Assembly: GCA_910585035.1 (NCBI GenBank) | Contig: CAJUEF010000004.1 | Location: 1,499 to 65,498 of the forward strand | Length of the DNA: 64,000 bases | Direction: 5' to 3' | Origin: an uncultured Christensenellaceae bacterium | Lineage (GTDB): Bacteria > Bacillota > Clostridia > Christensenellales > MGBC116941 | In this document: positions 14,700-58,235 of the stretch, one piece after another | How positions within the stretch are numbered: position 1 is the first letter of the stretch | How the letters are laid out: each line of letters opens with the position of its first letter | Program-made: the position numbers and the translations under genes | Notes under the pieces: model-generated | What the model was told of the DNA's origin: nothing | The model's database searches: none | Seen by the model: the letters and a program-made list of their open reading frames with translations, nothing else

Positions 14700-14968
14700 T
14701 AAGAAATTGATAGGTAAATGTATTGATGGGGAAACCTGTTTTAGCTGATGTAAAGAGAGAAAATGGTTGGTGTAAATTTTCGTGAGGCTAAAATAAATCG
14801 GTCATCACCCCTGAACAGCAAGGCTGAAATTTAAAGTAGGCTGCGCCGGGACCTCCCGTTATTGAGGAGCAGTATTATTTGTACTGTGTTAAGCGCACAT
14901 TTTATTATGTGAATTTAGGTGGTAACGCGGATTTATTTCGTCCTTTAACGAGATAAATCCGTTTTTTG
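14700..14968 (+). promoter_or_regulatory. T-box riboswitch leader (tRNA-sensing antiterminator), probable Ile specifier
   Basis: Stem I elements are present: a tgatg/tgaa GA motif, an AGAGA box (about 14753), and distal loop ggttggtg closed by gaaaat/attttc. An AGTA box and an F-box (cccgtta) follow. The T-box sequence aatttaggtggtaacgcgg (14912-14930) overlaps the left arm of terminator gcggatttatttcg/cgagataaatccg (14927-14961), which is followed by a T run. Confidence 0.85.
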
Positions 14969-15014: not shown

Positions 15015-15061
15015 GGTTAGTTTTCTTTTACTGATTTTCTTTTTTATAAAAGAAAAATCAG
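15015..15061 (+). repeat. family A hairpin repeat, copy 1 (between the T-box terminator and ilvB)
   Basis: ggttagttttctttta flank, then ctgattttctttt / aagaaaaatcag stem with a 1-nt bulge. Confidence 0.7.
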
Positions 15062-17334: not shown

Positions 17335-17375
17335 GTTTTCTTTGGTTTTACCTTTCTTTTTTAAAGGAGGGCAAG
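17335..17375 (+). repeat. family A hairpin repeat, copy 2 (degenerate right arm)
   Basis: gttttctttggttttacctttctttt is conserved, but the right arm has decayed to aaaggagggcaag. Confidence 0.6.
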
Positions 17376-17452
17376 CGGAGAAATAAAAGGGATGAGGGAA
17401 TTAAGTAATATTTTAAATAATGTGTTAAGGAAGCCCACATATTGATGCAACT

Positions 17453-20185
<2,733 letters not shown>

Positions 20186-20246: not shown

Positions 20247-20298
20247 ACTTTTCTTTTGTTACCTTTCTCTAAGAAAAGAAAGGTAACGCCAAAGAAAC
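20236..20298 (-). repeat. family A hairpin repeat, copy 4 (reverse orientation)
   Basis: Stem gttacctttc (20258-20267) / gaaaggtaac (20278-20287). The flank gccaaagaaac is the reverse complement of the GTTTCTTTGGC flank. Confidence 0.75.
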
Positions 20299-20440
20299 TT
20301 AATAGCAATGTGTATTGTGGTAAATATATAAGACTTTCGTTTGCTCCTTTATTTTTTTAAAAGAAGATGAAAGAGAAATGGAAAAAATAAAGACTGCCTG
20401 AATAAACAAATATATTTATTAAAGTGTTTATATGGAATAA

Positions 20441-20485
20441 GGTTTTCTTTTTGCTTCTTTTTCTTTTTTCTAAAAGAAAAAGAAG
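20441..20485 (+). repeat. family A hairpin repeat, copy 5 (immediately upstream of the cimA RBS)
   Basis: ggttttctttttg flank, then a perfect 14-bp stem cttctttttctttt (20454-20467) / aaaagaaaaagaag (20472-20485). Confidence 0.8.
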
Positions 20486-24884: not shown

Positions 24885-24950
24885 CCATCTTTCTTTTACT
24901 TTTTACTTTTTCTTTTAAAAAAGAAAAAGTAACAAAAAGAAAATTATGAA
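24885..24950 (-). repeat. family A hairpin repeat, copy 6 (reverse orientation)
   Basis: Perfect palindrome ttactttttctttt (24903-24916) / aaaagaaaaagtaa (24919-24932). The flank caaaaagaaaat is the reverse complement of ATTTTCTTTTTG. Confidence 0.8.
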
Positions 24951-25757: not shown

Positions 25758-26048
25758 ATGAAATCTCTTGGTCTTGTGCGTAAGGTGGACTGTTTGGGAA
25801 GAATTACAATTCCCAAAAGAATAAGAGAAGCCTGTAATATTCAAAAAGGCGATTATCTTGAAATATGTTTAAATAATCAATCAGAAATTATTTTTGTGCC
25901 ATGGCCAAACAAGTCGTATTCAAATATGGGAAATAAGGCAGAGGTTTTCAGGTCTAATCTGATTAATAAATTTGCTGAACAAAAAAATATAAATATTGAA
26001 AAAATTATTGAAATAATTGAAAATGAATATAAAAATTTAGATAATTAA
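25758..26048 (+). CDS. AbrB/MazE/SpoVT-family DNA-binding domain protein
   Basis: The N-terminus LVRKVDCLGRITIPKRIREACNIQKGDYLEI is a swapped-hairpin AbrB-type motif. RBS aaaggaag is present. Confidence 0.75.
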   Translation: MKSLGLVRKVDCLGRITIPKRIREACNIQKGDYLEICLNNQSEIIFVPWPNKSYSNMGNKAEVFRSNLINKFAEQKNINIEKIIEIIENEYKNLDN

Positions 26049-26127
26049 ATTACCTAATTTTTATTTTAAATTTTTTAATTTAAATATCATATTTTTTTGC
26101 CTGTATTAAATAATTCTTAAATTTTAT

Positions 26128-26150
26128 AACGCTTTAACAAGCGTTTTTTT
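26128..26150 (+). terminator. intrinsic terminator after the AbrB-like gene
   Basis: aacgctt (26128-26134) / aagcgtt (26139-26145) followed by a T7 run. Confidence 0.65.
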
Positions 26151-26253
26151 ACTTTCTGTCCCTGTTTTTTTTAAAAGAAATACATTATTAATAAAGTGTG
26201 TTTGTTATGGGAATGTCTATAATAAATGCACAAATACTTATTTGAGGATAATT

Positions 26254-26513
26254 AAGTTTTCTTTTGCTTACTTTTCTTTTTCTTAAAAGAAAAAATAATA
26301 AAATGTTTTTGTGGGTGAAATGACTATATAAAAGGAAAAAATTGTTTTAGAGGGTGAAATAAGTTTTCTTTTGCTTACTTTTCTTTTTCTTAAAAGAAAA
26401 AATAATAAAATGTTTTTGTGGGTGAAATGGCTATATAAAAGGAAAAAGTTGTTTTAAAGGGTGAAAATAAGTTTTCTTTTGCTTACTTTTCTTTTTCTTA
26501 AAAGAAAAGTAAG
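26254..26513 (+). repeat. tandem array (about 2.4 units of 107-108 bp), each unit starting with a family A hairpin repeat
   Basis: aagttttcttttgcttacttttctttttcttaaaagaaaa recurs at 26254, 26361 and 26469. Units 1 and 2 are near-identical. Only unit 3 keeps the perfect stem cttacttttctttt (26482-26495) / aaaagaaaagtaag (26500-26513). Confidence 0.9.
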
Positions 26514-26617
26514 AATTCATTGCTCTAATAATTATTATGTATTATAATAATTATCATACAAATATGCTTATATATAAAGCTTTGAAATAATCGTAATTAC
26601 TAAGAAGGAGATGTGTT

Positions 26618-27310
26618 ATGCAATATTCAAAGGAACTTGAAGAGATGGAATGTGTGCTTCAGGGTACTAACCACGGTCCTGCTCCTATTCCCGTAGAGGG
26701 CAAGTGGGTGCAGTCTACTCAGATAAGCGATGTAAGCGGTCTTACTCACGGGGTGGGCTGGTGCGCACCTCAGCAGGGCGGCTGTAAGCTTACGCTTAAT
26801 GTTAAAAACGGAATAATAGAGGAAGCTCTTATCGAAACAATAGGATGCAGCGGAATGACTCACAGCGCAGCAATGGCAAGTGAGATACTTCCCGGCAAAA
26901 CTCTCCTAGAGGCTCTTAATACCGACCTTGTATGCGACGCTATTAACTGCGCTATGAGAGAGCTGTTTTTGCAAATAGTATACGGCCGCACTCAAACAGC
27001 TTATTCACAGGGTGGTTTGCCTGTAGGCGCAGGCCTGGAAGATTTGGGCAAGGGCCACAGAAGCCAGGTTGGAACCATGTATGGCAGCAGGCTCAAAGGC
27101 GCAAGGTATATGGAAATGGCGGAAGGCTATGTGCTGGAAATCGGTCTTGATGAAAACAGTGAAATAATTGGTTATAAGTTTGTCAACATCGGTAAAATGA
27201 TGGACGCTATAAAAAAAGGAGTCGACCCTAAAAAGGCATTTGAAGATAATGTGGGAACTTACGGACGCATTGACGAAGCTGCAAAGCTAATCGACCCTAG
27301 AGAGAAATAG
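26618..27310 (+). CDS. IscU/NifU-like Fe-S scaffold-domain protein with a unique C-terminal extension of about 100 aa
   Basis: GVGWCAPQQGGCKLTLNVKNGIIEEALIETIGCSGMTHSAAMASEILPGKTLLEALN..LVCDAINCAMREL parallels the IscU layout (a Cys before the first strand, GC...A.S, a late Cys). RBS aaggag is present. Confidence 0.7.
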   Translation: MQYSKELEEMECVLQGTNHGPAPIPVEGKWVQSTQISDVSGLTHGVGWCAPQQGGCKLTLNVKNGIIEEALIETIGCSGMTHSAAMASEILPGKTLLEALNTDLVCDAINCAMRELFLQIVYGRTQTAYSQGGLPVGAGLEDLGKGHRSQVGTMYGSRLKGARYMEMAEGYVLEIGLDENSEIIGYKFVNIGKMMDAIKKGVDPKKAFEDNVGTYGRIDEAAKLIDPREK

Positions 27311-27324
27311 GAGGAATAAAGACA

Positions 27325-28323
27325 GTGATACAATTTGAAGGTTATGATAGAAGAATAGATAACATCAATGCTGTTTTAAAGGAAAACGGTTTTTCCTCTC
27401 TTGAAGAGGTGAAGCAGCTTTGCGAGAGCAAAGGCATTGACGTGCATAAAATTGTTTTCGGAGTGCAGCCAATTGCGTTTGAAAATGCCGCATGGGCATA
27501 CACTCTTGGTGCGGCTATTGCCATTAAAAGAGGGGTTAATAAGGCGAGTGACGCAGCAGCCGTAATTGGCGAAGGCTTGCAGGCGTTTTGTGTTCCGGGC
27601 AGCGTGGCTGACCAGAGAAAGGTTGGCAGAGGCCATGGAAATCTTGGAGCAATGCTTTTAAGAGAAGAAACAGACTGTTTTGCTTTCCTTGCGGGACATG
27701 AATCCTTTGCGGCGGCAGAGGGAGCAATAGGCATTGCAAGGGCTGCAAACAAGGTTAGGCAAAAGCCTCTTAGGGTAATTTTAAACGGCCTTGGAAAAGA
27801 CGCTGCTTACATTATAAGCCGTATAAACGGTTTTACTTTTGTGGATACCAAGTTTGATTATGACACTGATAGCCTAAGTGTGGTATCGGAAAAAGCATTT
27901 TCCAAAGGCGAAAGAAGCAAGGTTCGCTGCTATGGCGCCAACGATGTCAGAGAAGGCGTTGCTATCATGATTAAAGAGGGCGTGAACGTGTCAATTACAG
28001 GCAATTCCACAAATCCTGTGCGTTTTCAGCATCCTGTTGCCGGCACTTATAAAAAGTGGGCGGTGGAAAACGGCTTTAAATATTTTTCTGTGGCATCAGG
28101 AGGAGGAACAGGAAGAACGCTGCATCCTGATAATATGGGTGCAGGGCCTGCATCCTACGGGCTTACCGATACCATGGGAAGAATGCACTGTGACGCCCAG
28201 TTTGCAGGGTCATCCTCTGTTCCCGCTCATGTTGATATGATGGGGCTTATAGGTATGGGCAACAACCCAATGGTGGGAACCACCGTTGCCGTTGCCGTTG
28301 CCGTTGAAGAGGCAATGAAATAA
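27325..28323 (+). CDS. GGGtGRT-motif protein (uncharacterised conserved family)
   Basis: GTG start 9 nt after AGGAGG. The motif SGGGTGRT is encoded at 28096-28119 (GGGTGRT at 28099-28119). I recall a family named after this motif with no assigned function. There are no TM segments. Confidence 0.7.
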   Translation: MIQFEGYDRRIDNINAVLKENGFSSLEEVKQLCESKGIDVHKIVFGVQPIAFENAAWAYTLGAAIAIKRGVNKASDAAAVIGEGLQAFCVPGSVADQRKVGRGHGNLGAMLLREETDCFAFLAGHESFAAAEGAIGIARAANKVRQKPLRVILNGLGKDAAYIISRINGFTFVDTKFDYDTDSLSVVSEKAFSKGERSKVRCYGANDVREGVAIMIKEGVNVSITGNSTNPVRFQHPVAGTYKKWAVENGFKYFSVASGGGTGRTLHPDNMGAGPASYGLTDTMGRMHCDAQFAGSSSVPAHVDMMGLIGMGNNPMVGTTVAVAVAVEEAMK

Positions 28324-28365
28324 CAAAGGCAGTATAAAAGATGTGACTGCTAAGAGGTGGTTCTT

Positions 28366-28596
28366 ATGAAACAGAATAAAGGAGGAGCAATTCTCTGGGG
28401 CGGAATAGTGGTTGCTCTGGAACTGATATTTTTTCTCGGTCTTATTGTTGCCGCTTTTGCATTAAAGGATATGGTAATGGCAATTACTGCAATACTTCCC
28501 TTGCTTGTTGCTGTTTTTACGGCTTATTTTCTATGGCAGAGGCTTGGTGAAATTAAGGAAGAGCAAAAGCATGGCGATGAATATGATAAATATTAA
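28366..28596 (+). CDS. small two-TM membrane protein
   Basis: 76 aa from ATG 28366 (RBS aagagg 8 nt upstream; the track's alternative GTG is at 28357). It has two hydrophobic helices and a charged C-terminal tail. Confidence 0.55.
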   Translation: MKQNKGGAILWGGIVVALELIFFLGLIVAAFALKDMVMAITAILPLLVAVFTAYFLWQRLGEIKEEQKHGDEYDKY

Positions 28597-28612
28597 TTAA
28601 AAGGAGAATATT

Positions 28613-28924
28613 ATGATTATTGTTACAGTGGATACGGTTTCCGGCAGACAGCTTGAAACTATGGGTTATGTTAAAGGAGCGACAGTGCGTTCAAAAAACC
28701 TTGGCAAAGATATTGGCGCAGGGCTGAAAACCATTGTTGGCGGCGAGCTTAAGGGATACACTGAAATGCTTAATGAGGCGCGCCAGGAAGCCGTTGCAAG
28801 AATGGTGGATGAAGCTATGGCTTTAGGAGCAGACGCAATAGTGGGTCTTAGGTTTTCCTCTTCAGCGATAATGCAGGGAGCTGCCGAAGTGGTGGCATAT
28901 GGAACTGCTGTAAAGTTTGTGTAA
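28613..28924 (+). CDS. YbjQ/UPF0145 family protein
   Basis: 103 aa. ...GYVKGATVRSKNLGKDIGAGLKTIVGGELKGYTEMLNEARQEA...GADAIVGLRF is the typical YbjQ_1 pattern. Confidence 0.85.
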   Translation: MIIVTVDTVSGRQLETMGYVKGATVRSKNLGKDIGAGLKTIVGGELKGYTEMLNEARQEAVARMVDEAMALGADAIVGLRFSSSAIMQGAAEVVAYGTAVKFV

Positions 28925-28998: not shown

Positions 28999-29295
28999 TT
29001 ATTCTTTGTTGGCTTTTTTAATTTTTTTCTTGGGACAGGTATAGTTTAAAACCTCGTGACTGTCGCATAACCCTTCTGTGGTTGGATCTGTGACTGCATT
29101 CCAAATACTTATAACTATAAGACCAAGCACATATGGATTTAGCGCTGCGCTTTTAAAAAGGTTAAAAACAATAGTCCAGGTTGTCAGGTCTTCAAATGTC
29201 AGCTTTGCATAAGTAAGCATGGGCATAATTATAGCGAGCAAAAGCTGAACAATGAATACAGGATTTTTAAACCTGACCTTCCAGTTTATTTTCAT
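28999..29295 (-). CDS. phage-type holin (phi LC3 / Phage_holin_1-like)
   Basis: MKINWKVRFKNPVF...NAVTDPTTEGLCDSHEVLNYTCP matches the remembered NWKVR.KN...DPTT.G..DS...L.Y..P holin signature. ATG 29295 is preceded by AAGGAGG. The longer track ORF (to 29490) overlaps the upstream gene. Confidence 0.8.
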   Translation of the reverse strand: MKINWKVRFKNPVFIVQLLLAIIMPMLTYAKLTFEDLTTWTIVFNLFKSAALNPYVLGLIVISIWNAVTDPTTEGLCDSHEVLNYTCPKKKIKKANKE

Positions 29296-29311
29296 TTTGC
29301 TAACCTCCTTG

Positions 29312-29899
29312 TCACCACCTGCTGTAATGACCCCGAACATCCACATGGGTGAAATAGCTGTATTTGCCAACTCCGCCGCTGTCTCCCACAGTTTTATCAG
29401 CAATTTCATACATTTTTTCCGCAGAAATGTCTTTGGTCTGAATATCCGCAGCTGCAGCATAAAGGTGCTGTGATTCTTGAGCGCCTTCAACCTTTTTGTT
29501 ATATGAAGGTGTGCGGTATCCGCTCATAATGGTTACAGGAACATTTCCGTATGCAGAACGAACCTTTTCCAGCATATTCATTAAGGACTGTAAATTATTC
29601 CAATATTCCGGCGGAACATCGGTTCCGTCCTTACATTTGAATTCAGACATTTTAAAATGTTCACTGCGGGGTTCTTCTGAGCCTTGTGAAATTCCCAGTT
29701 TTTCATAGGTATCAGGTCCCACAATGCCGTCGGATGCAATGCCTTTTTCCTGCTGAAATTTTTTAACTGCAGACTGGGTTTGCTTGCCGAATATAGAATC
29801 CAGGTTTCCTTTATAAAAGCCTAAAGACTGCAACTTTTTTTGAGCGTCAAGAATTTGACTGCTTTTCATCATTGGATCTGTTAATTTTAGTAATTTCAT
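29312..29899 (-). CDS. peptidoglycan-binding domain + M15A (D-Ala-D-Ala carboxypeptidase-like) peptidase; endolysin-like
   Basis: N-terminal PG_binding_1 repeat (LQSLGFYKGNLDSIFGKQTQSAVKKFQQEKGIASDGIVGPDTY). C-terminal M15A zinc motifs SQHLYAAAADI and FTHVDVR. Confidence 0.8.
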   Translation of the reverse strand: MKLLKLTDPMMKSSQILDAQKKLQSLGFYKGNLDSIFGKQTQSAVKKFQQEKGIASDGIVGPDTYEKLGISQGSEEPRSEHFKMSEFKCKDGTDVPPEYWNNLQSLMNMLEKVRSAYGNVPVTIMSGYRTPSYNKKVEGAQESQHLYAAAADIQTKDISAEKMYEIADKTVGDSGGVGKYSYFTHVDVRGHYSRW

Positions 29900-48867: not shown

Positions 48868-48912
48868 AGGTTTTCTTTTTATTGCTTTTTCATTTTTCTA
48901 AAAGAAAAAGTA
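48868..48912 (+). repeat. family A hairpin repeat, copy 8 (left arm degenerate)
   Basis: ggttttcttttta flank and an intact right arm aaaagaaaaagtaa (48899-48912). An isolated right-arm fragment, aagaaaggtaag, lies at about 48806. Confidence 0.6.
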
Positions 48913-48941
48913 AAATAGAAGTATAGAAAAAGCAACAAAGT

Positions 48942-49138: not shown

Positions 49139-50479
49139 ATGAAAGATAACAAAAGAGTTCATTTTGCCAGCAAGATTGGATTTCTTCTGGCAACAGCAGG
49201 CTCCGCCGTGGGGCTTGGAAATTTATGGAAGTTCCCGTATATGACAGGTCTTAACGGCGGCTTTCTGTTTATTATAGTATCATTAGTTATGGTATTTTTA
49301 ATAGGCATGCCGGTTATGATGTCGGAAATGGCTATTGGACGAAATACGCAGAAAAGTCCTGTGGGCGCTTATTCTGCAATAAACAAAAAATACCGTATAT
49401 TTGGTATAATGCCAACGATTGTGGCGTTTATAATTTTGTCTTACTACAGCGTTATAGGCGGATGGGTTTTAAAATACCTGTTTACATATGTAACAGGGGG
49501 ATTAAACGGCGTTTCAGCGGCAACAGCCTTTGAAAGCTTTGTTACCAATCCGTGGGAGCCGTTAATATGGCATGGAATATTTATGGCTATTACCATTGGC
49601 ATATGTTATATGGGTGTTAATAAAGGAATTGAAAAAGCAAGTGAATTTATGATGCCTGCGCTTTTTATAATAGTTATAATCACTTGTATTCGTTCAATAA
49701 CTTTGCCGGGCGCAATGGATGGTGTTAAATTTTTATTTCAGCCGAATTTGGATAAGATATTTTCTCCTGAGCTTTATATAGGCGCTCTGTCACAGTCTTT
49801 CTACTCTCTTAGTCTTGGTATGGCGATTATAATTACTTATGGAAGCTATATGAATAAAAGTGAGAATATAGGCAAGAGCTCTGCAATAGTTTGTTCAATG
49901 GATTTATCTGTGGCCGTACTTGCCAGTATAGCAATTATGCCTGCGGTATTTTCCGCAGGATTGGAGCCAACTTCAGGACCAAAGCTGATATTTGTTACTT
50001 TGCCTTATGTATTTGAAGCAATGCCAATGGGCGTTTTATTTGCGGTTCTGTTCTTTGTGCTGGTATTATTTGCAGCTGTTACAAGTTCTATATCCCTGCT
50101 TGAGACAACGGCTGCTTATGCTATAGACGAGAGAGGCTGGTCAAGAGCAAAGGCGGTTTTGGTGCTTGGAACTATTATGGCTATAATAGGTATACCTTCA
50201 TCTCTTTCTCAGGGAGTATGGGCTGAGTATACCGTTATGGGTATGGGTTGCCTTGATTTTCTTTCGTTCCTTACAGATAATATTATGCTTCCAATATGTG
50301 CCTTTTGCAGTTGTATTTATATCAGCCGCTGCTGGAAAACCAGTAACGCTTGTGATGAAATGGGTCTTAAAGGTGCCTTTAGAAAGGCTTACAGCTTTAT
50401 TATAAGCTATGTGGCTCCGATAGCCATTGCGGTAGTATTTATATATGGCTTGCTGCCTTTCTTTGGGGTTAAGGTTTAA
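49139..50479 (+). CDS. sodium-dependent transporter, SNF (neurotransmitter:sodium symporter) family
   Basis: SKIGFLLATAGSAVGLGNLWKFPY is the NSS signature. 446 aa, about 11-12 TM segments. Confidence 0.9.
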   Translation: MKDNKRVHFASKIGFLLATAGSAVGLGNLWKFPYMTGLNGGFLFIIVSLVMVFLIGMPVMMSEMAIGRNTQKSPVGAYSAINKKYRIFGIMPTIVAFIILSYYSVIGGWVLKYLFTYVTGGLNGVSAATAFESFVTNPWEPLIWHGIFMAITIGICYMGVNKGIEKASEFMMPALFIIVIITCIRSITLPGAMDGVKFLFQPNLDKIFSPELYIGALSQSFYSLSLGMAIIITYGSYMNKSENIGKSSAIVCSMDLSVAVLASIAIMPAVFSAGLEPTSGPKLIFVTLPYVFEAMPMGVLFAVLFFVLVLFAAVTSSISLLETTAAYAIDERGWSRAKAVLVLGTIMAIIGIPSSLSQGVWAEYTVMGMGCLDFLSFLTDNIMLPICAFCSCIYISRCWKTSNACDEMGLKGAFRKAYSFIISYVAPIAIAVVFIYGLLPFFGVKV

Positions 50480-51244: not shown

Positions 51245-51574
51245 ATGAAAAAGAGCAATTTAGGATCTAGAATTAAAATAGCAAGAAGTAGTTTAGGAAT
51301 TACATCTGAAAATTTGGCTGAGGCATGTAATATAAGCAACACATATATGCGTAAAATTGAAAGTGGTTCACAAATTCCAAGTGTAGCTGTGTTTATTACT
51401 ATATGCAATGAGCTTAAAGTTTCTGCAGATTATCTTTTGCAGGACTTTTTGGATTGCAATGAATTAGATGATTTACCTGAGCTGAAAGAGCTTTGGAAGA
51501 AAGCTTCGCCAAAACAAAGCGGTATGGCAATATCTATGATAAAGGAAGCAATGAAGCATACCAACACTAAATAA
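51245..51574 (+). CDS. XRE-family HTH transcriptional regulator
   Basis: IKIARSSLGITSENLAEACNISNTYMRKIESG is an HTH_XRE motif. It is divergent from the hypothetical gene at 50642. Confidence 0.85.
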   Translation: MKKSNLGSRIKIARSSLGITSENLAEACNISNTYMRKIESGSQIPSVAVFITICNELKVSADYLLQDFLDCNELDDLPELKELWKKASPKQSGMAISMIKEAMKHTNTK

Positions 51575-51661: not shown

Positions 51662-51706
51662 GGTTTTCTTTTTGTTACTTTTTCTTTTTTCTAAAAGAAA
51701 AAGTAA
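51662..51706 (+). repeat. family A hairpin repeat, copy 9 (near-consensus)
   Basis: ggttttctttttg flank, then a perfect 14-bp stem ttactttttctttt (51675-51688) / aaaagaaaaagtaa (51693-51706) with loop ttct. Confidence 0.85.
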
Positions 51707-56797: not shown

Positions 56798-58171
56798 TTG
56801 AAACAGAGAGAAAAATTTTCATCCCGAATGGGATTTGTGCTTATTTCGGCGGGGTGCGCCATAGGTCTTGGAAATGTATGGAGGTTTCCTTTTATTACAG
56901 GTAAATATGGCGGAGCTGCATTTGTCCTGTTATATTTGATATTCCTTGTAATTATGGGGCTGCCAATAATGATTATGGAGTTTACTGTAGGTAGAGCTAG
57001 CCAGAAAAGTGTTGCCATGTCCTTTGATGCTTTGGAACCGGCGGGTTCTAAATGGCATTTGCACAAATATACGTCTATTGCAGGCAATTACCTGCTTATG
57101 ATGTTTTATACAACGGTGGCAGGGTGGATTCTTATTTATTGCTGGAAAATGGCTGTCGGCGGATTTCAGGGCATGAGTCCCACTCAGATTTCAGATGTGT
57201 TTTCACAAATAAACGCCCAGCCTCTTGTAACAGTTGGAGCCATGTTTATCGTAGTTATCGGCTGTTTTAGCATATGCTCCTTTGGCTTAAATAATGGTGT
57301 GGAAAAAGTTACAAAGATTATGATGCTGTGTCTTCTTGCGATTATGCTGGCCCTTGCAATTCATTCTGTTACTATGCCCGGGGCTGCTGAAGGCTTGTCA
57401 TTTTATCTTTTGCCGGATTTTTCAAAGCTGACGGAATACGGTCTTTTTAATGTGATTTTTGATGCAATGGGTCAGGCGTTTTTCACCCTTAGCCTTGGTA
57501 TGGGTTCCATTGCAATTTTCGGAAGCTATATTGGGAAAGAAAGATCTTTAACAGGAGAAGCTGTTATAGTTACCCTTCTTGATACATTTGTTGCGCTAAT
57601 GGCAGGATTTATTATATTTCCTGCATGCTTTACCTTTGGATTGCAGCCGGATAGCGGACCAAAATTAATTTTTGAAACCTTGCCAAACGTGTTTGCAGGT
57701 CTTCCGGGAGGGAGAATGTGGGGATTTTTATTCTTCGTTTTTCTGCTTTTTGCAGCACTGTCAACGGTTATTGCGGTGTTTGAAAACATTTTGGCATGGT
57801 GGATGGATTATAAGGACTGGAGCCGTAAAAAAACTGTTTTAATCAATGTTGTATTAATGTTAATACTATGTCTTCCATGTGTTTTGGGATTTAATTTGCT
57901 TAGCGGTGTTCAGCCTTTTGGCGCAGGAAGCACAATTATGGATCTTGAGGATTTTATTGTTAGCAATAATGTTCTGCCTTTAGGCTCCCTTATCTATTTG
58001 CTGTTTTGTACCAGCAAATACGGCTGGGGATGGAATAATTTTCTGGAGGAAGCAAACACAGGACTTGGGGCAAAATTTCCTAAATGGGTGAAGGTGTATG
58101 TGTCATATGTGCTGCCTCTTGTTATTTTGGTGATATTTATACAAGGCTACGTTGCTAAATTTTGGATTTAA
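56798..58171 (+). CDS. sodium-dependent transporter, SNF family (second paralog)
   Basis: TTG start after aaggagaaagag. SRMGFVLISAGCAIGLGNVWRFPF is the NSS signature. Confidence 0.9.
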   Translation: MKQREKFSSRMGFVLISAGCAIGLGNVWRFPFITGKYGGAAFVLLYLIFLVIMGLPIMIMEFTVGRASQKSVAMSFDALEPAGSKWHLHKYTSIAGNYLLMMFYTTVAGWILIYCWKMAVGGFQGMSPTQISDVFSQINAQPLVTVGAMFIVVIGCFSICSFGLNNGVEKVTKIMMLCLLAIMLALAIHSVTMPGAAEGLSFYLLPDFSKLTEYGLFNVIFDAMGQAFFTLSLGMGSIAIFGSYIGKERSLTGEAVIVTLLDTFVALMAGFIIFPACFTFGLQPDSGPKLIFETLPNVFAGLPGGRMWGFLFFVFLLFAALSTVIAVFENILAWWMDYKDWSRKKTVLINVVLMLILCLPCVLGFNLLSGVQPFGAGSTIMDLEDFIVSNNVLPLGSLIYLLFCTSKYGWGWNNFLEEANTGLGAKFPKWVKVYVSYVLPLVILVIFIQGYVAKFWI

Positions 58172-58185
58172 CTGAGATAGGAAAT

Positions 58186-58235
58186 CCTCTTACTTTTCTT
58201 TTTAGGAAAAAAGAAAAGTAAGCAAAAGAAAAACC
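58186..58235 (-). repeat. family A hairpin repeat, copy 10 (reverse orientation)
   Basis: Perfect 14-bp stem cttacttttctttt (58189-58202) / aaaagaaaagtaag (58209-58222). The flank caaaagaaaaacc is the reverse complement of GGTTTTTCTTTTG. Confidence 0.85.

Follow-up and report, generated by a model that had tools for sequence, protein, structure and literature searches.

The tandem array at 26253-26508 of the window (the whole 64-kb stretch of DNA that was analysed) is real and varies between strains. It is built from copies of a short element, which we call family A, and pattern scans point to family A as a widespread group of intergenic elements in bacteria and archaea that has apparently not been described before, rather than a palindrome specific to one species. 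Each complete copy carries a pyrimidine tract (Py1) followed by a hairpin with a pyrimidine arm (Py2) and a purine arm (Pu). Across copies in many phyla Py1 mirrors Py2, and therefore reads parallel to the purine arm, with T for A and C for G; this parallel, co-varying register is, as far as sequences can tell, characteristic of an intramolecular pyrimidine-motif triple helix. The best explanation overall, and one that we consider rather probable, would combine a genuine array made variable by recombination with a cross-phylum family of triplex-type elements.

The array occupies one locus, with a period of 107, 2.4 copies, 97% matches and no indels (score 484, Tandem Repeats Finder); both the program and direct reading of the sequence find near-identical units arranged head-to-tail, as in a tandem repeat. 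Direct reading agrees with the earlier note in placing the starts of three units at 26254, 26361 and 26469, and AAGTTTTCTTTTGCTTACTTTTCTTTTTCTTAAAAGAAAA opens every one of them. Units 1 (107 nt) and 2 (108 nt) do differ little, by three substitutions and one inserted base, and the third unit does have a perfect stem, being the sole array copy with one: 14 bp, CTTACTTTTCTTTT/AAAAGAAAAGTAAG, at 26482-26513, which matches once within the 64-kb window where chance would give none. To these units we add an older, degenerate one further upstream, at about 26147-26253; 26189-26295 and 26296-26402 are 79% identical overall, and about 65% identical within the tail part. The repeat region is made up as follows.

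26128-26150, + strand: intrinsic terminator of the upstream AbrB/MazE-like gene (25758-26048), a 7-bp stem AACGCTT/AAGCGTT followed by a T run (terminator scan)
26147-26253, + strand: unit 0, an old degenerate copy (repeat search at 79%, and alignment), its core shrunk to T8/AAAAGAAA at 26165-26180 and followed by tail0
26254-26360, + strand: unit 1 (107 nt), a hybrid element and then tail A (Tandem Repeats Finder, sequence, RNA fold); Py1 26257-26265, linker G 26266, outer 5' arm CTTAC 26267-26271, Py2 26272-26280, loop TCTT 26281-26284, Pu 26285-26293, outer 3' arm absent
26361-26468, + strand: unit 2 (108 nt), the same hybrid element as in unit 1 and then tail G (Tandem Repeats Finder); Py1 26364-26372, Py2 26379-26387, Pu 26392-26400
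26469-26513, + strand: terminal, complete family A element, with the perfect 14-bp stem and Py1 parallel to Pu; Py1 TTTTCTTTT 26472-26480, linker G 26481, outer 5' arm CTTAC 26482-26486, Py2 TTTTCTTTT 26487-26495, loop TCTT 26496-26499, Pu AAAAGAAAA 26500-26508, outer 3' arm GTAAG 26509-26513

The gene at 25758-26048 has a Pfam match to MazE_antitoxin, and its terminator coincides with the left boundary of the repeat region.

As RNA, the terminal element forms a hairpin of -15.1 kcal/mol (z = -4.7) and unit 1 an inner stem of 9 bp at -8.1 kcal/mol, energies that cover the hairpin alone, ViennaRNA and RNAalifold handling Watson-Crick and G-U pairs only. The right arm of units 1 and 2 had been described as decayed, a description that alignment does not sustain; these units are crossover hybrids, in which the left part of the terminal element is fused, at the AAAAGAAA core, to the sequence 3' of the unit 0 core. 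The copies in units 1 and 2 may be non-functional, because the outer stem is missing. Given that the two units are recombinant hybrids, unequal crossing-over between element copies is the most likely origin of the array: unequal crossing-over, or template switching during replication, between neighbouring copies of the ~45-nt element would have produced it, with the crossover joint in the TTTT...AAAAGAAA core that is common to the terminal element and unit 0.

That the amplification is recent, as the earlier note proposed, is supported by the 97% identity of the units and by the differences in copy number and structure among strains. Assemblies of the same species show one unit fewer, possibly one more, or the old diverged version only. 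Contig L001 has one unit fewer together with a tail0/tailA recombinant, L002/L008 have only the old version of the array with two diverged tails, and L129 with L006 suggest at least three recent units; all of these are short-read assemblies in which unit numbers are inexact, and copy number in L001 and L129 is possibly distorted by repeat collapse or expansion. It is very improbable, even so, that the array or its copy number is an artefact of assembly in which a repeat was expanded or collapsed. The breaking of same-species short-read assemblies at this locus, where at least ten contigs terminate within the array (L003-L005, L007, L009, L130-L133), is what such an artefact would lead one to expect, but four positions separate units 1 and 2, and an independent MAG (GCA_948509565.1) repeats the unit-specific variants: one of its contigs ends in the array and another starts from it (L129 with the A-type, L006 with the G-type), with unit-specific SNPs matching those of the window. 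Independent contigs from other samples that span the array likewise carry related multi-unit structures with structural variants (L001, L002/L008), and the recombinant in L001 is not one that collapse could produce.

The proposal that the array is a recombination hot spot gains support from a second locus. Upstream of ilvC the same kind of element-bounded duplication or insertion is present in some strains and absent from others, which have a single copy. Tandem arrays that contain the element, with periods of 72 and 74, are found in another genome (L117), and short-read contigs of the species from which the window comes break at element copies. The repetition of the element and its potential to form structure would together make element loci prone to duplication; in bacteria, genome rearrangement has been associated with intrastrand triplex motifs (Holder et al., 2015, PMC4666352).

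Downstream of the array lies an operon with an IscU-like gene and a GGGtGRT gene.

26520-26548, + strand: candidate sigma-70 promoter of the IscU-like/GGGtGRT operon, TTGCTC-17 nt-TATAAT, as read from the sequence
26605-28924, + strand: the downstream operon (ORF list, Pfam)
26605-26610, + strand: ribosome-binding site AAGGAG of the operon
26618-27310, + strand: IscU/NifU-like gene
27325-28323, + strand: GGGtGRT gene
28357-28596, + strand: small membrane ORF
28613-28924, + strand: YbjQ gene

The earlier note put the array some 100 bp ahead of the promoter region; the best candidate promoter instead begins 7 nt past the last hairpin, and it was omitted by the consensus scan because its -35 hexamer matches at 3 of 6 positions. 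The gene order of the operon is identical in L001-L009. Among labelled sequences, those nearest to the IscU-like protein come from uncultured Eubacteriales/Christensenellaceae MAGs. In the closest relative, with an IscU-like protein that is 94% identical, the operon comes directly after leuA and the array is absent; in this relative and in those at 82-83% identity no element precedes the operon. We therefore rejected a conserved leader of the IscU-like operon, and consider it unlikely that the array has a conserved regulatory role there.

We also considered whether the array is a cis-regulatory module of this operon in its own right, made of operator- or iteron-like sites or of a UP-like A/T tract at the -35 hexamer, with the sub-repeats TGTTTTnGnGGGTGAAAT bound by the neighbouring HTH or AbrB-like regulators, for example. 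The location is suggestive, with the array ending 7 nt before the candidate -35 hexamer and regulator genes just upstream of it, and each unit holds two copies of the ~18-nt sub-repeat. The second sub-repeat, however, is merely the usual 5' flank of the element, found likewise at 20442 and 48870, and strains of the same species vary in the number and sequence of the units; with the absence of the array at 94% identity and of any upstream element at 82-83%, we regard such a module as improbable. A CodY box was tried and dropped, the spacing of the half-sites being a misfit. The cold-shock protein Bs-CspB prefers GTCTTTG/T, which is a lead only. Rather than a conserved regulator of the operon, the array at this locus is probably a by-product of element instability that has come to lie directly against a promoter; in practical terms, strains differ in the copy number found beside the promoter of the IscU-like/GGGtGRT operon.

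On alignment, the dispersed unit of family A is about 45 nt in length, not about 110 nt. The larger figure had been derived from the spacing of the copies, yet the 119-bp spacing upstream of ilvC and the 107-bp array unit have only the ~45-nt element in common, and a composite element of ~110 bp was rejected because the ilvC and array spacers lack homology outside the element. The hairpin, formerly assigned to the 5' end of the element, is its 3' end in more than 180 copies from other genomes, where the conserved unit consists of the 5' flank, Py1 and the hairpin. What stands of the earlier interpretation is thus the recent amplification and the recombination hot spot; the ~110-bp element, the decayed arm, the distance to the promoter and the conserved role in the operon do not. 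The mirror-repeat, triplex-type architecture and the broad distribution had gone unnoticed there.

Family A has a common layout of the 5' pyrimidine tract Py1 (GTTTTCTTTTG), a linker of 1-2 nt, and a hairpin with a variable outer stem of 4-6 bp and the inner stem TTTTCTTTT/AAAAGAAAA. The 64-kb window holds 12 copies, nine on the + and three on the - strand, and all are intergenic; a loose pattern for the family found 12 sites where 0.31 were expected, and a strict pattern seven, with 0.00 expected in the shuffled window. Outside the array, the copies are these.

15020-15061, + strand: copy between the T-box leader/terminator and the ribosome-binding site of ilvB
17335-17496, + strand: two copies flanking a 75-nt insert, upstream of ilvC; the copy at 17335-17375 is a hybrid without the 3' arm, the copy at 17454-17496 is complete, with register 4-C-3 / 3-C-4 / 4-G-3
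20258-20299, - strand: copy in opposite orientation after the ilvD terminator
20442-20485, + strand: copy abutting the ribosome-binding site of leuA, register 4-C-5 / 5-C-4 / 4-G-5
24903-24944, - strand: copy between the leuB stop codon and a bidirectional intrinsic terminator
48870-48913, + strand: copy upstream of a sodium:neurotransmitter symporter (SNF) family gene (49139-50479)
51663-51706, + strand: copy some 20 nt past the intrinsic terminator of an HTH gene (51245-51574), with breaks inside it in several assemblies
58189-58234, - strand: copy abutting the stop codon of an SNF transporter gene (56798-58171), register 5-C-4 / 4-C-5+ / 5-G-4

Py1, Py2 and Pu follow one another on one strand in every complete copy of the window, as they do in over 180 copies from elsewhere. 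The register can be measured by counting T after the C in Py1 (f), T before the C in Py2 (a) and A after the G in Pu (d), and f = a = d in 119 of 132 copies; the loci come from pattern scans, the first of which used a pattern that was itself mirror-symmetric, and copies from the same genome are not independent. A metagenome scan that left Py1 unconstrained returned 75 copies with an upstream pyrimidine tract; the C stands three T from the 3' end of that tract in 71 of them, the counterpart of a G three A from the 3' end of Pu, and direct copies of Py2 were found upstream in none. Mirror arrangements outnumber direct ones overall by 212 to 15. Asymmetric variants keep the register across Py1, Py2 and Pu (5-C-3 / 3-C-5 / 5-G-3; 3-C-5 / 5-C-3 / 3-G-5; 5-C-4 / 4-C-5 / 5-G-4), and so do variants with two C: TCTTCTTTT / TTTTCTTCT / AGAAGAAAA, TTCTTCTTT / TTTCTTCTT / AAGAAGAAA and TTCTCTTT / TTTCTCTT / AAGAGAAA. 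At the ilvD-leuA site, where a related species (L280) has an orthologous copy with register 5-C-4 / 4-C-5 / 5-G-4, all three segments differ in register together.

Co-variation is seen in the outer stem too, where each pair shows 19-29 double compensatory changes among 68 copies; its internal non-Watson-Crick pairs, taken on the pyrimidine strand, are G.T in 15 cases and A.C in three, which is indirect evidence for a fold in the transcript. In nearly all copies the outer stem measures 4-6 bp and the linker 0-2 nt. There are 8-10 triplets, Py1 and Py2 stand 5-7 nt apart and the hairpin loop has 2-6 nt, sizes of stem and loop that fall within published limits for triplex-motif searches (at least 6-8 triplets; loops of 0-10 nt).

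The fold that we propose on this basis begins with a 5' flank (K1), which is followed by Py1 (T4-5 C T3-5), a linker of 1-2 nt, the outer 5' arm of 4-6 nt, Py2 as the mirror of Py1, the loop, Pu (A4-5 G A3-5) and the outer 3' arm. Py2, Pu and the outer arms would form the hairpin, with Py1 placed in its deep groove and parallel to Pu, forming 8-10 U.A-U (T.A-T) triples whose register would be set by one central C+.G-C triple; the short linker would cross the groove of the outer stem in the manner of loop 1 in an H-type pseudoknot. In the terms of Hoyne and Maher, the inferred fold is a class IV pyrimidine-motif intrastrand triplex. Of the contexts for a C+.G-C triple, an internal position between U.A-U triples in an intramolecular triplex shifts the pKa most favourably (review, PMC7583470). 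A DNA triplex of the purine motif (A.A-T) on the opposite strand is possible in principle.

Py1 might more simply have arisen by slippage as a direct copy of Py2, or might compete for Watson-Crick pairing with Pu in a switch of the attenuator kind; since the register is mirrored and not direct, neither was accepted as the main constraint. In some RNA folds Py1 pairs in part with purine-rich Shine-Dalgarno regions 3' of the hairpin, pairing which these models make a possible secondary feature. More generally, the element could be an ordinary A/T-rich palindrome or weak hairpin that has no third strand, Py1 being a partial copy left by slippage or a protein-binding or UP-like tract, and the array a plain duplication. 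The hairpin alone does explain the folding energy (z from -2 to -4.7), T- and A-rich sequence of low complexity is common in A/T-rich genomes, and most A/T-rich triplex matches are possibly due to chance according to Holder et al. (PMC4666352). Slippage nonetheless predicts a direct repeat, and the tallies run the other way, both in the unconstrained set (no direct against 71 mirror) and overall; proteins read direct or inverted repeats, not mirror repeats; and the three segments co-vary in register, the two-C variants included. Members of the family also occur in G/C-rich contexts, with G/C-rich loops and outer stems, and the seven sites with the full pattern would not be met in a shuffled window, all of which leaves a plain palindrome with little probability.

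In many lineages the triplex-type fold may be completed by a further helix. The bases 5' of Py1 (K1) are complementary to the hairpin loop, as in an H-type pseudoknot; the sequences concerned differ by lineage, and two copies on one contig co-vary as GCACC/GGTGT and GCGCC/GGCGT (K1/loop). Of 75 copies, 25 have a K1:loop helix of at least 4 bp, whereas 1000 permutations gave 6.4 on average and never more than 15. The window copies have TCTT or TTCT loops and their K1:loop pairing is weak or absent, amounting at most to UAAG:CUUA in the array copies only; it is in the lineages with G/C-rich loops, as in L161 and L141, that K1 would pair with the loop and complete the H-type pseudoknot.

The family A architecture is found in Bacillota, Thermodesulfobacteriota, Nitrospirota, Bacteroidota, CPR (candidate phyla radiation) bacteria and archaea, with more than 119 loci in diverse taxa among the matches listed by the pattern scan; some species are likely, judging from these scans, to have hundreds of copies per genome. 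Cultured carriers include Butyricicoccus porcorum BB10 (L077) and Mucilaginibacter sp. E4BP6 (L040). A search of Rfam 15 at the gathering score, covering the window and 20 element-bearing loci, returned no family matching the element and reported the T-box leader and one tRNA only; for 26100-26650, matches in Rfam at E up to 10 stayed at chance level. In open-access full texts, searches met with reviews of RNA triple helices and with general studies of intrastrand DNA triplexes, and no text among them described the family; an earlier description elsewhere is possible. An intrinsic terminator was considered for the element and discarded, the stem being A/T-rich with no T run after it and the terminator at 26128-26150 being the sole one listed for the region; canonical terminators are not enriched beside elements (7-12% per side and strand).

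[quoted passage not shown] We give slightly less than even chances to the narrower idea that the fold forms in RNA of the pyrimidine strand and makes a compact module at gene boundaries, resistant to nucleases or ribosomes. A function as stabiliser or insulator of RNA is proposed from position alone, with REP elements and ENE-type stabilisers for comparison.

The structure might instead arise in single-stranded DNA, not RNA. The element would then be a selfish or recombinogenic repeat of REP-like or MITE-like kind, perhaps mobilised in trans by an HUH/Y1 transposase or spread by recombination only, and a hairpin or triplex on the lagging-strand template or under supercoiling would cause stalling, slippage and duplications. 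Several observations fit with this: the element has many intergenic copies, in either orientation, and assemblies break at it; duplications or insertions bounded by it are polymorphic at two loci and arrays exist in other genomes; its pyrimidine strand is the strand with positive GC skew for nine of the 12 window copies; and intrastrand DNA triplex motifs have been tied to rearrangements (Holder et al., 2015, PMC4666352). Some copies lie just downstream of canonical terminators (those at 51663 and 24944 in the window), which is awkward for an obligate cis-acting RNA, and 33 of 183 copies have their hairpin right next to the stop codon of an oppositely oriented gene, which could reflect an insertion preference. 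Against this, all-against-all BLAST of ORFs within 2.5 kb of 133 matches revealed no recurrent neighbour gene, such as a transposase or RAYT, at a fixed position, and the element is rare in viral contigs, with eight matches in 2.9 million, which speaks against a phage origin too.

The geometry and the gene context also weigh against a DNA structure. A linker of 1-2 nt over an outer stem of 4-6 bp would suit the A-form deep groove better than the B-form, given what is established for pseudoknots. Spacers between co-directional genes have the element in sense in 39 cases and in antisense in 20, an antisense share of about one third that tells against the main reading; in operon-like spacers of up to 200 nt the bias is 15 to four. 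A copy directly against the Shine-Dalgarno sequence of leuA has been kept at the orthologous site in two species. We judge a structure confined to single-stranded DNA to be on the unlikely side.

If the fold forms in vivo, family A would offer an abundant prokaryotic system for triple-helix biology, with regard to RNA stability and to translation at operon junctions; it would open pH and temperature sensing through the C+.G-C triple to study, supply a compact module for RNA engineering, and give a concrete sequence explanation for the local duplication hot spots and broken assemblies of gut Clostridia and other MAGs. RNA triple helices known from nature are considered rare and short, typically of 3-6 triples, and those of prokaryotes are mainly found in riboswitch pseudoknots and group II introns (reviews). 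A novel RNA class of the kind outlined above would have a longer triple helix than any natural one apart from MALAT1-type elements, would provide prokaryotes with their first abundant one, and might respond to pH or temperature.

Among known systems, REP and BIME sequences are similar in being short hairpin repeats with a conserved 5' flank, present in many copies, in either orientation, in the spacers of operons and at the ends of genes, with local clusters and tandem groups; the functions of REPs include mRNA stabilisation. Family A has the many short intergenic palindromes in both orientations, but REPs are G/C-rich palindromes with a 5' GTAG, lineage-specific and linked to RAYTs (REP-associated tyrosine transposases), whereas the 5' flank of family A is G-TTTTCTTT(T)-G, its stem core is A/T-only, the same core recurs across phyla with a mirror-repeat third strand, and no associated gene was seen near the 133 matches. 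ENE/MALAT1-type triple helices resemble the proposed fold in their long stack of U.A-U triples broken by one C+.G-C and in having an A-rich 3' strand between two U-rich strands, and a stabilising role is plausible for family A as it is for them. In an ENE, however, a U-rich internal loop clamps a distal 3' A-rich tail, and these elements are eukaryotic or viral and differ in topology and context; the order in family A is Py1, Py2, loop, Pu, with the hairpin's own 3' arm as the purine strand, so that only the composition of the triples is in common.

The potential intrastrand triplex (PIT) motifs, including TMECO (Hoyne et al., 2000; Holder et al., 2015, PMC4666352), likewise consist of three consecutive blocks on one strand, and their copies are likewise numerous, mostly intergenic and conserved; the loci with PIT motifs are more rearranged among related strains, and those of family A are alike in this. 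In PIT nomenclature family A would be class IV (5' Hoogsteen block, pyrimidine block, purine block), a class that made up 4% of matches in the survey of Holder et al. (PMC4666352), which did not characterise A/T-rich motifs. TMECO is G/C-rich, of the purine motif (class II, C-G-G) and confined to Proteobacteria, whereas family A is A/T-rich with a single central C/G, has in addition a variable outer stem and often a loop pseudoknot, occurs in many phyla and in archaea, and may fold as RNA. A further structural parallel would be with H-type pseudoknots that contain a major-groove triplex: the order S1a, U-rich loop 1, S2a, S1b, S2b is the same, the deep groove of S2 takes up a U-rich loop 1 whose U.A-U triples run parallel to the purine strand, and the connector across the groove is very short. 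Curated pseudoknot families (SAM-II, SAM-V, preQ1-II and others) gave no Rfam 15 match in the window and 20 loci. The known triplex pseudoknots are single-copy structures of 3-6 triples, each linked to a particular gene or ligand; family A, by contrast, has 8-10 predicted triples, S1 in some lineages only, and many copies per genome in both orientations beside unrelated neighbours.

The tandem array reported in the earlier note, built from the family A element (a dispersed repeat of ~45 nt) upstream of the IscU-like/GGGtGRT operon, is present as claimed: Tandem Repeats Finder gave 26253-26508 with a period of 107, 2.4 copies, 97% matches and a score of 484, and this together with direct reading placed the unit starts at 26254, 26361 and 26469. 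Units 1 and 2 (107 nt and 108 nt) indeed differ little, by three substitutions and one inserted base, and the truncated third unit does carry a perfect stem, a 14-bp CTTACTTTTCTTTT/AAAAGAAAAGTAAG helix with loop TCTT at 26482-26513 that is found in the last copy only (folding energy as RNA -15.1 kcal/mol, z = -4.7). Upstream of unit 1 lies a degenerate older unit, unit 0 (~26147-26253); its tail, the sequence following the element core, shares ~65% identity with the recent tails, and the core has shrunk to T8/AAAAGAAA. Two features frame the repeat region:

26128-26150: intrinsic terminator of the AbrB/MazE-like gene; the repeat region starts directly after it
26520-26548: best promoter candidate for the IscU-like/GGGtGRT/YbjQ operon, read from the sequence (TTGCTC, 17 nt, TATAAT)

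The repeat region ends 7 nt before the candidate -35 hexamer, and a consensus scan did not list this promoter because that hexamer matches at 3 of 6 positions only. An 18-nt sub-repeat, TGTTTTnGnGGGTGAAAT, occurs twice in each 107-bp unit (26304-26321 and 26343-26360 in unit 1, with corresponding positions in unit 2), and its second occurrence serves as the 5' flank of the element that follows. Comparable flanks lie before the copies at 20442 and 48870 (AAAGTG...GGAATAAG and AAAGTGGAAAATATAAG); the sub-repeat might be a binding site for a protein or, in this species, belong to the element itself.

The right hairpin arm of units 1 and 2 had been described as decayed, which a comparison with unit 0 does not bear out. 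Both units join the left part of the terminal element, up to its AAAAGAAAA core, to a homologue of the sequence that follows the unit 0 core, keeping the upstream pyrimidine tract (Py1) and the pyrimidine and purine arms of the hairpin (Py2 and Pu) while the outer 3' arm is gone. To judge from their sequence, these hybrids have exactly the form that unequal crossing-over between two element copies would give. The simplest account would be repeated unequal exchange between element cores, one old event and then a recent one, leaving two hybrid units and one complete element against the promoter. In another genome (L117) the element and a private tail form tandem arrays with periods of 72 and 74 (3.5 and 2.8 copies), and tandem pairs at closer spacing occur at L013, L046, L088 and L126.

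Exact matches to the IscU-like and AbrB-like proteins are found on many contigs of other samples, and at least 10 short-read contigs end within the array. Among those that span it, L001 has one recent unit fewer and a recombinant first tail (left half from unit 0, right half from a recent tail), and L002 and L008 have two old, diverged tails, the recent amplification being absent. In the MAG GCA_948509565.1, one contig (L129) enters the array through two identical A-type units, with the unit 1 tail, and a third start, and another (L006) begins in a G-type unit, with the unit 2 tail, and runs on into the operon; this suggests at least three recent units, in a kind of repeat for which short-read assembly is unreliable. 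Given these structural variants, the array is real, young and structurally polymorphic, in keeping with the recent amplification first proposed.

The ilvC locus shows the same duplication process. In the window and some strains, two element copies surround a 75-nt insert upstream of ilvC, a hybrid without 3' arm at 17335 and a complete copy at 17454; strains L263, L265 and L266 have a single copy. Alignment showed no homology between the ilvC spacer and the array tail, so the full-length element of ~110 bp deduced earlier from the two loci does not hold. In the three single-copy strains a G/C-rich stretch, GCTTTGGGCTATCGCCCTTGCAGCTGGCGCTGCTGCTTGCTGTCGCAAGC, is also inserted ~60-130 nt ahead of the element; it is absent from the window and perhaps represents another repeat family, and farther upstream L263 has a similar second piece. 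Directly after the complete window copy, AAGGAGAAAATATGTAAG (17489-17506) reads as a Shine-Dalgarno sequence, a start codon and an immediate stop (ATG TAA).

In related operons, at 94% and 82-83% protein identity, neither an element nor an array lies upstream, and both unit number and unit sequence vary among strains of the window's species, which argues that the array is not a conserved regulator of the IscU-like/GGGtGRT operon. In the closest relative (L280) the operon directly follows leuA; leuCDB and three small regulator genes lie between them in the window. The operon is adjoined by a pair of genes near which no further phage genes were found:

28999-29899, minus strand: Phage_holin_1 gene and peptidoglycan-binding M15 peptidase gene, between YbjQ and murC

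The element itself is far more widespread than the array. With a loose pattern we counted 12 copies in the window against 0.31 expected, all intergenic and beside unrelated genes (ilvB, ilvC, ilvD, leuA, leuB, two SNF transporters, an HTH gene and the IscU-like operon); each is built of G-TTTTCTTT(T)-G, 4-6 variable bases, TTT(T)CTTTT, a short loop, AAAAGAAA(A) and a stretch complementary to the variable bases. The same pattern, applied to one genome per species, recovered at least 119 loci; loci were gathered by pattern scans throughout, and copies within one genome are related. Carriers among the matches listed include Oscillospiraceae, Butyricicoccus, other Clostridia, Selenomonadaceae, Thermodesulfobacteriota, Nitrospirota, Nitrospinota, Bacteroidota, Melainabacteria, CPR bacteria and four archaeal MAGs with a common sub-type of their own; the taxonomy of MAGs is open to binning errors. 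Outer-stem complementarity, which the pattern did not impose, is present in nearly all matches listed, with 19-29 double compensatory changes per outer-stem pair (RNAalifold, 68 diverse copies). Several matches are only 5-9 nt away from a contig end, and in the window's species contigs break at copies of the element, so the element is a high-copy repeat. No recurring neighbour protein family was found beside it, viral contigs seldom carry it, and a search of Rfam gave no match.

One window copy (15020-15061) lies between the terminator of a T-box and the ilvB ribosome-binding site:

14714-14948, plus strand: T-box leader upstream of ilvB (Rfam RF00230, 110 bits)

Between the two ilvD-leuA elements, a repeat search (69%) found a degenerate T-run/AAAAGAAG-type hairpin at 20341-20375, which may be a remnant of another copy. 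In Thermodesulfobacteriota, subsets of elements (for example L029, L058, L086 and L091, ~70 nt 5' of the element, and L037, L045, L069 and L123) have conserved lead-ins of 50-70 nt, among them ...ttgccagggcaagg..gtatccaagggtggccacaggtga.gttagtggc... and ...acgcggggcgca..gtg..., mostly followed by G(G/A)(G/A)AA(A/T)TCTTTT, and the element may there be a piece of a longer unit.

Our structural conclusions derive from sequence patterns throughout. Writing Py1 as T^e C T^f, Py2 as T^a C T^b and Pu as A^c G A^d, we found f = a = d in 119 of 132 distinct matches listed (value 3 in 71, 4 in 46 and 5 in 2). Since this first pattern fixed e, b and c, copies outside it were sought, giving the registers 5-C-3 / 3-C-5 / 5-G-3 (four copies), 5-C-4 / 4-C-5 / 5-G-4 (two, one being window copy 58234), 3-C-5 / 5-C-3 / 3-G-5 and 4-C-2 / 2-C-4 / 4-G-2. 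A metagenome scan that defined the hairpin alone (Py2 3-C-5+, Pu 5+-G-3) and left Py1 unconstrained yielded 75 oriented copies in which a pyrimidine tract lies no more than 4 nt away from the outer stem: exactly three T follow the Py1 C in 71, with (e,f) of (4,3) in 33, (5,3) in 29, (2,3) in 5, (6,3) in 2 and (3,3) in 2, and a direct copy of Py2, (3,5), in none of the 75. Two-C variants keep the mirror register: TCTTCTTTT / TTTTCTTCT / AGAAGAAAA (L015), TTCTTCTTT / TTTCTTCTT / AAGAAGAAA (L161), TTCTCTTT / TTTCTCTT / AAGAGAAA (L205) and 5-C-3-C-4 in all three segments (L146). Asymmetric purine 8-mers with a Watson-Crick partner and an upstream pyrimidine copy, taken across all collected loci, gave 212 mirror and 15 direct arrangements. 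These counts and variants indicate that Py1 is the mirror image of Py2: read 5' to 3', it follows Pu base by base, T standing for A and C for G. This is exactly the arrangement needed by a third strand of the pyrimidine motif, with T.A-T and C+.G-C parallel to the purine strand. Slippage would give a direct repeat, and protein recognition uses direct or inverted repeats; neither would account for the mirror.

A second feature of the unconstrained metagenome set is that K1, the 4-6 bases directly 5' of Py1, is often the reverse complement of the hairpin loop. The pairs differ by lineage (GGTGGC/GCCACC, GCCTG/CAGGC, CTTGAT/ATCAAG, GTGC/GCAC, CGCG/CGCG, GTCGCC/GGCGAC) and co-vary between two copies on one contig (GCACC/GGTGT and GCGCC/GGCGT); of the 75 copies whose loops have 4 nt or more, 25 show a K1:loop helix of at least 4 bp, against a mean of 6.4 and a maximum of 15 in 1000 permutations. 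K1, Py1, the 5' arm of the hairpin, the loop and the 3' arm follow one another as in an H-type pseudoknot, in which Py1 would be loop 1, lying along the deep groove of the hairpin from loop end to base, parallel to Pu. This pairing is independent of the mirror repeat and so points to the same fold. One or two nucleotides can bridge ~5-7 bp across an A-form deep groove; the outer stem of 4-6 bp and linker of 0-2 nt, seen nearly always among the matches listed, would fit such a crossing. The pseudoknot is not established for the window copies, because their loops are T/C-only and allow at best four pairs (UAAG:CUUA, array copies).

Several observations favour folding of the pyrimidine strand, probably as RNA. 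Internal non-Watson-Crick pairs of the outer stem, read on that strand, comprise 15 G.T and 3 A.C. Between co-directional genes 39 copies are sense and 20 antisense (15 and 4 in spacers of at most 200 nt), a bias we count for RNA, and in sense copies the 3' arm frequently touches or runs into the Shine-Dalgarno sequence (20442 before leuA, 15020 before ilvB, L036, L084, L126). The relative with the 94% identical IscU-like protein (L280) keeps the element at the ilvD-leuA position in register 5-C-4 / 4-C-5 / 5-G-4, compared with 4-C-5 / 5-C-4 / 4-G-5 in the window, the three segments having shifted together; in the 760-822 region of L280, its 82-nt ilvD-leuA spacer is mostly one element with a 3' arm that extends into the Shine-Dalgarno sequence of leuA.

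The main rival to an RNA module is an element that acts as single-stranded DNA or is a selfish repeat. Against an obligate cis-acting RNA stand the antisense third of copies between co-directional genes and the window copies 51663 and 24944, 20-30 nt downstream of canonical terminators; the opposite strand could also form a purine-motif DNA triplex. A further point against such an RNA comes from 33 of 183 elements (in the window and loci L010-L253; for example L014, L025, L097, L117, L224), in which the stop codon of an opposite-strand ORF of at least 100 codons lies -1 to +12 nt from the hairpin 3' end; on the Py1 side the nearest gene is typically 120-250 nt away. Possible reasons for the asymmetry are an insertion preference, shielding from convergent transcription, or a hairpin that serves the 3' end of that gene.

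In the nomenclature of Holder et al. (PMC4666352) the element belongs to the class IV intrastrand triplex motifs; the motif described there is G/C-rich, class II and proteobacterial, unlike the family A element, which that paper does not describe and which may already figure among the uncharacterised class IV entries of the ITxF database. Protonation within an intramolecular triplex is most favoured at a single internal C+.G-C with U.A-U on either side (PMC7583470), a further point for the fold. We infer that the element is best read as a compact structural module at gene boundaries that would work chiefly as RNA, forming a barrier against nucleases or ribosomes; being repeated and structure-forming, it would also promote local duplication. 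The barrier role proposed here is comparable to that of REP or ENE elements.
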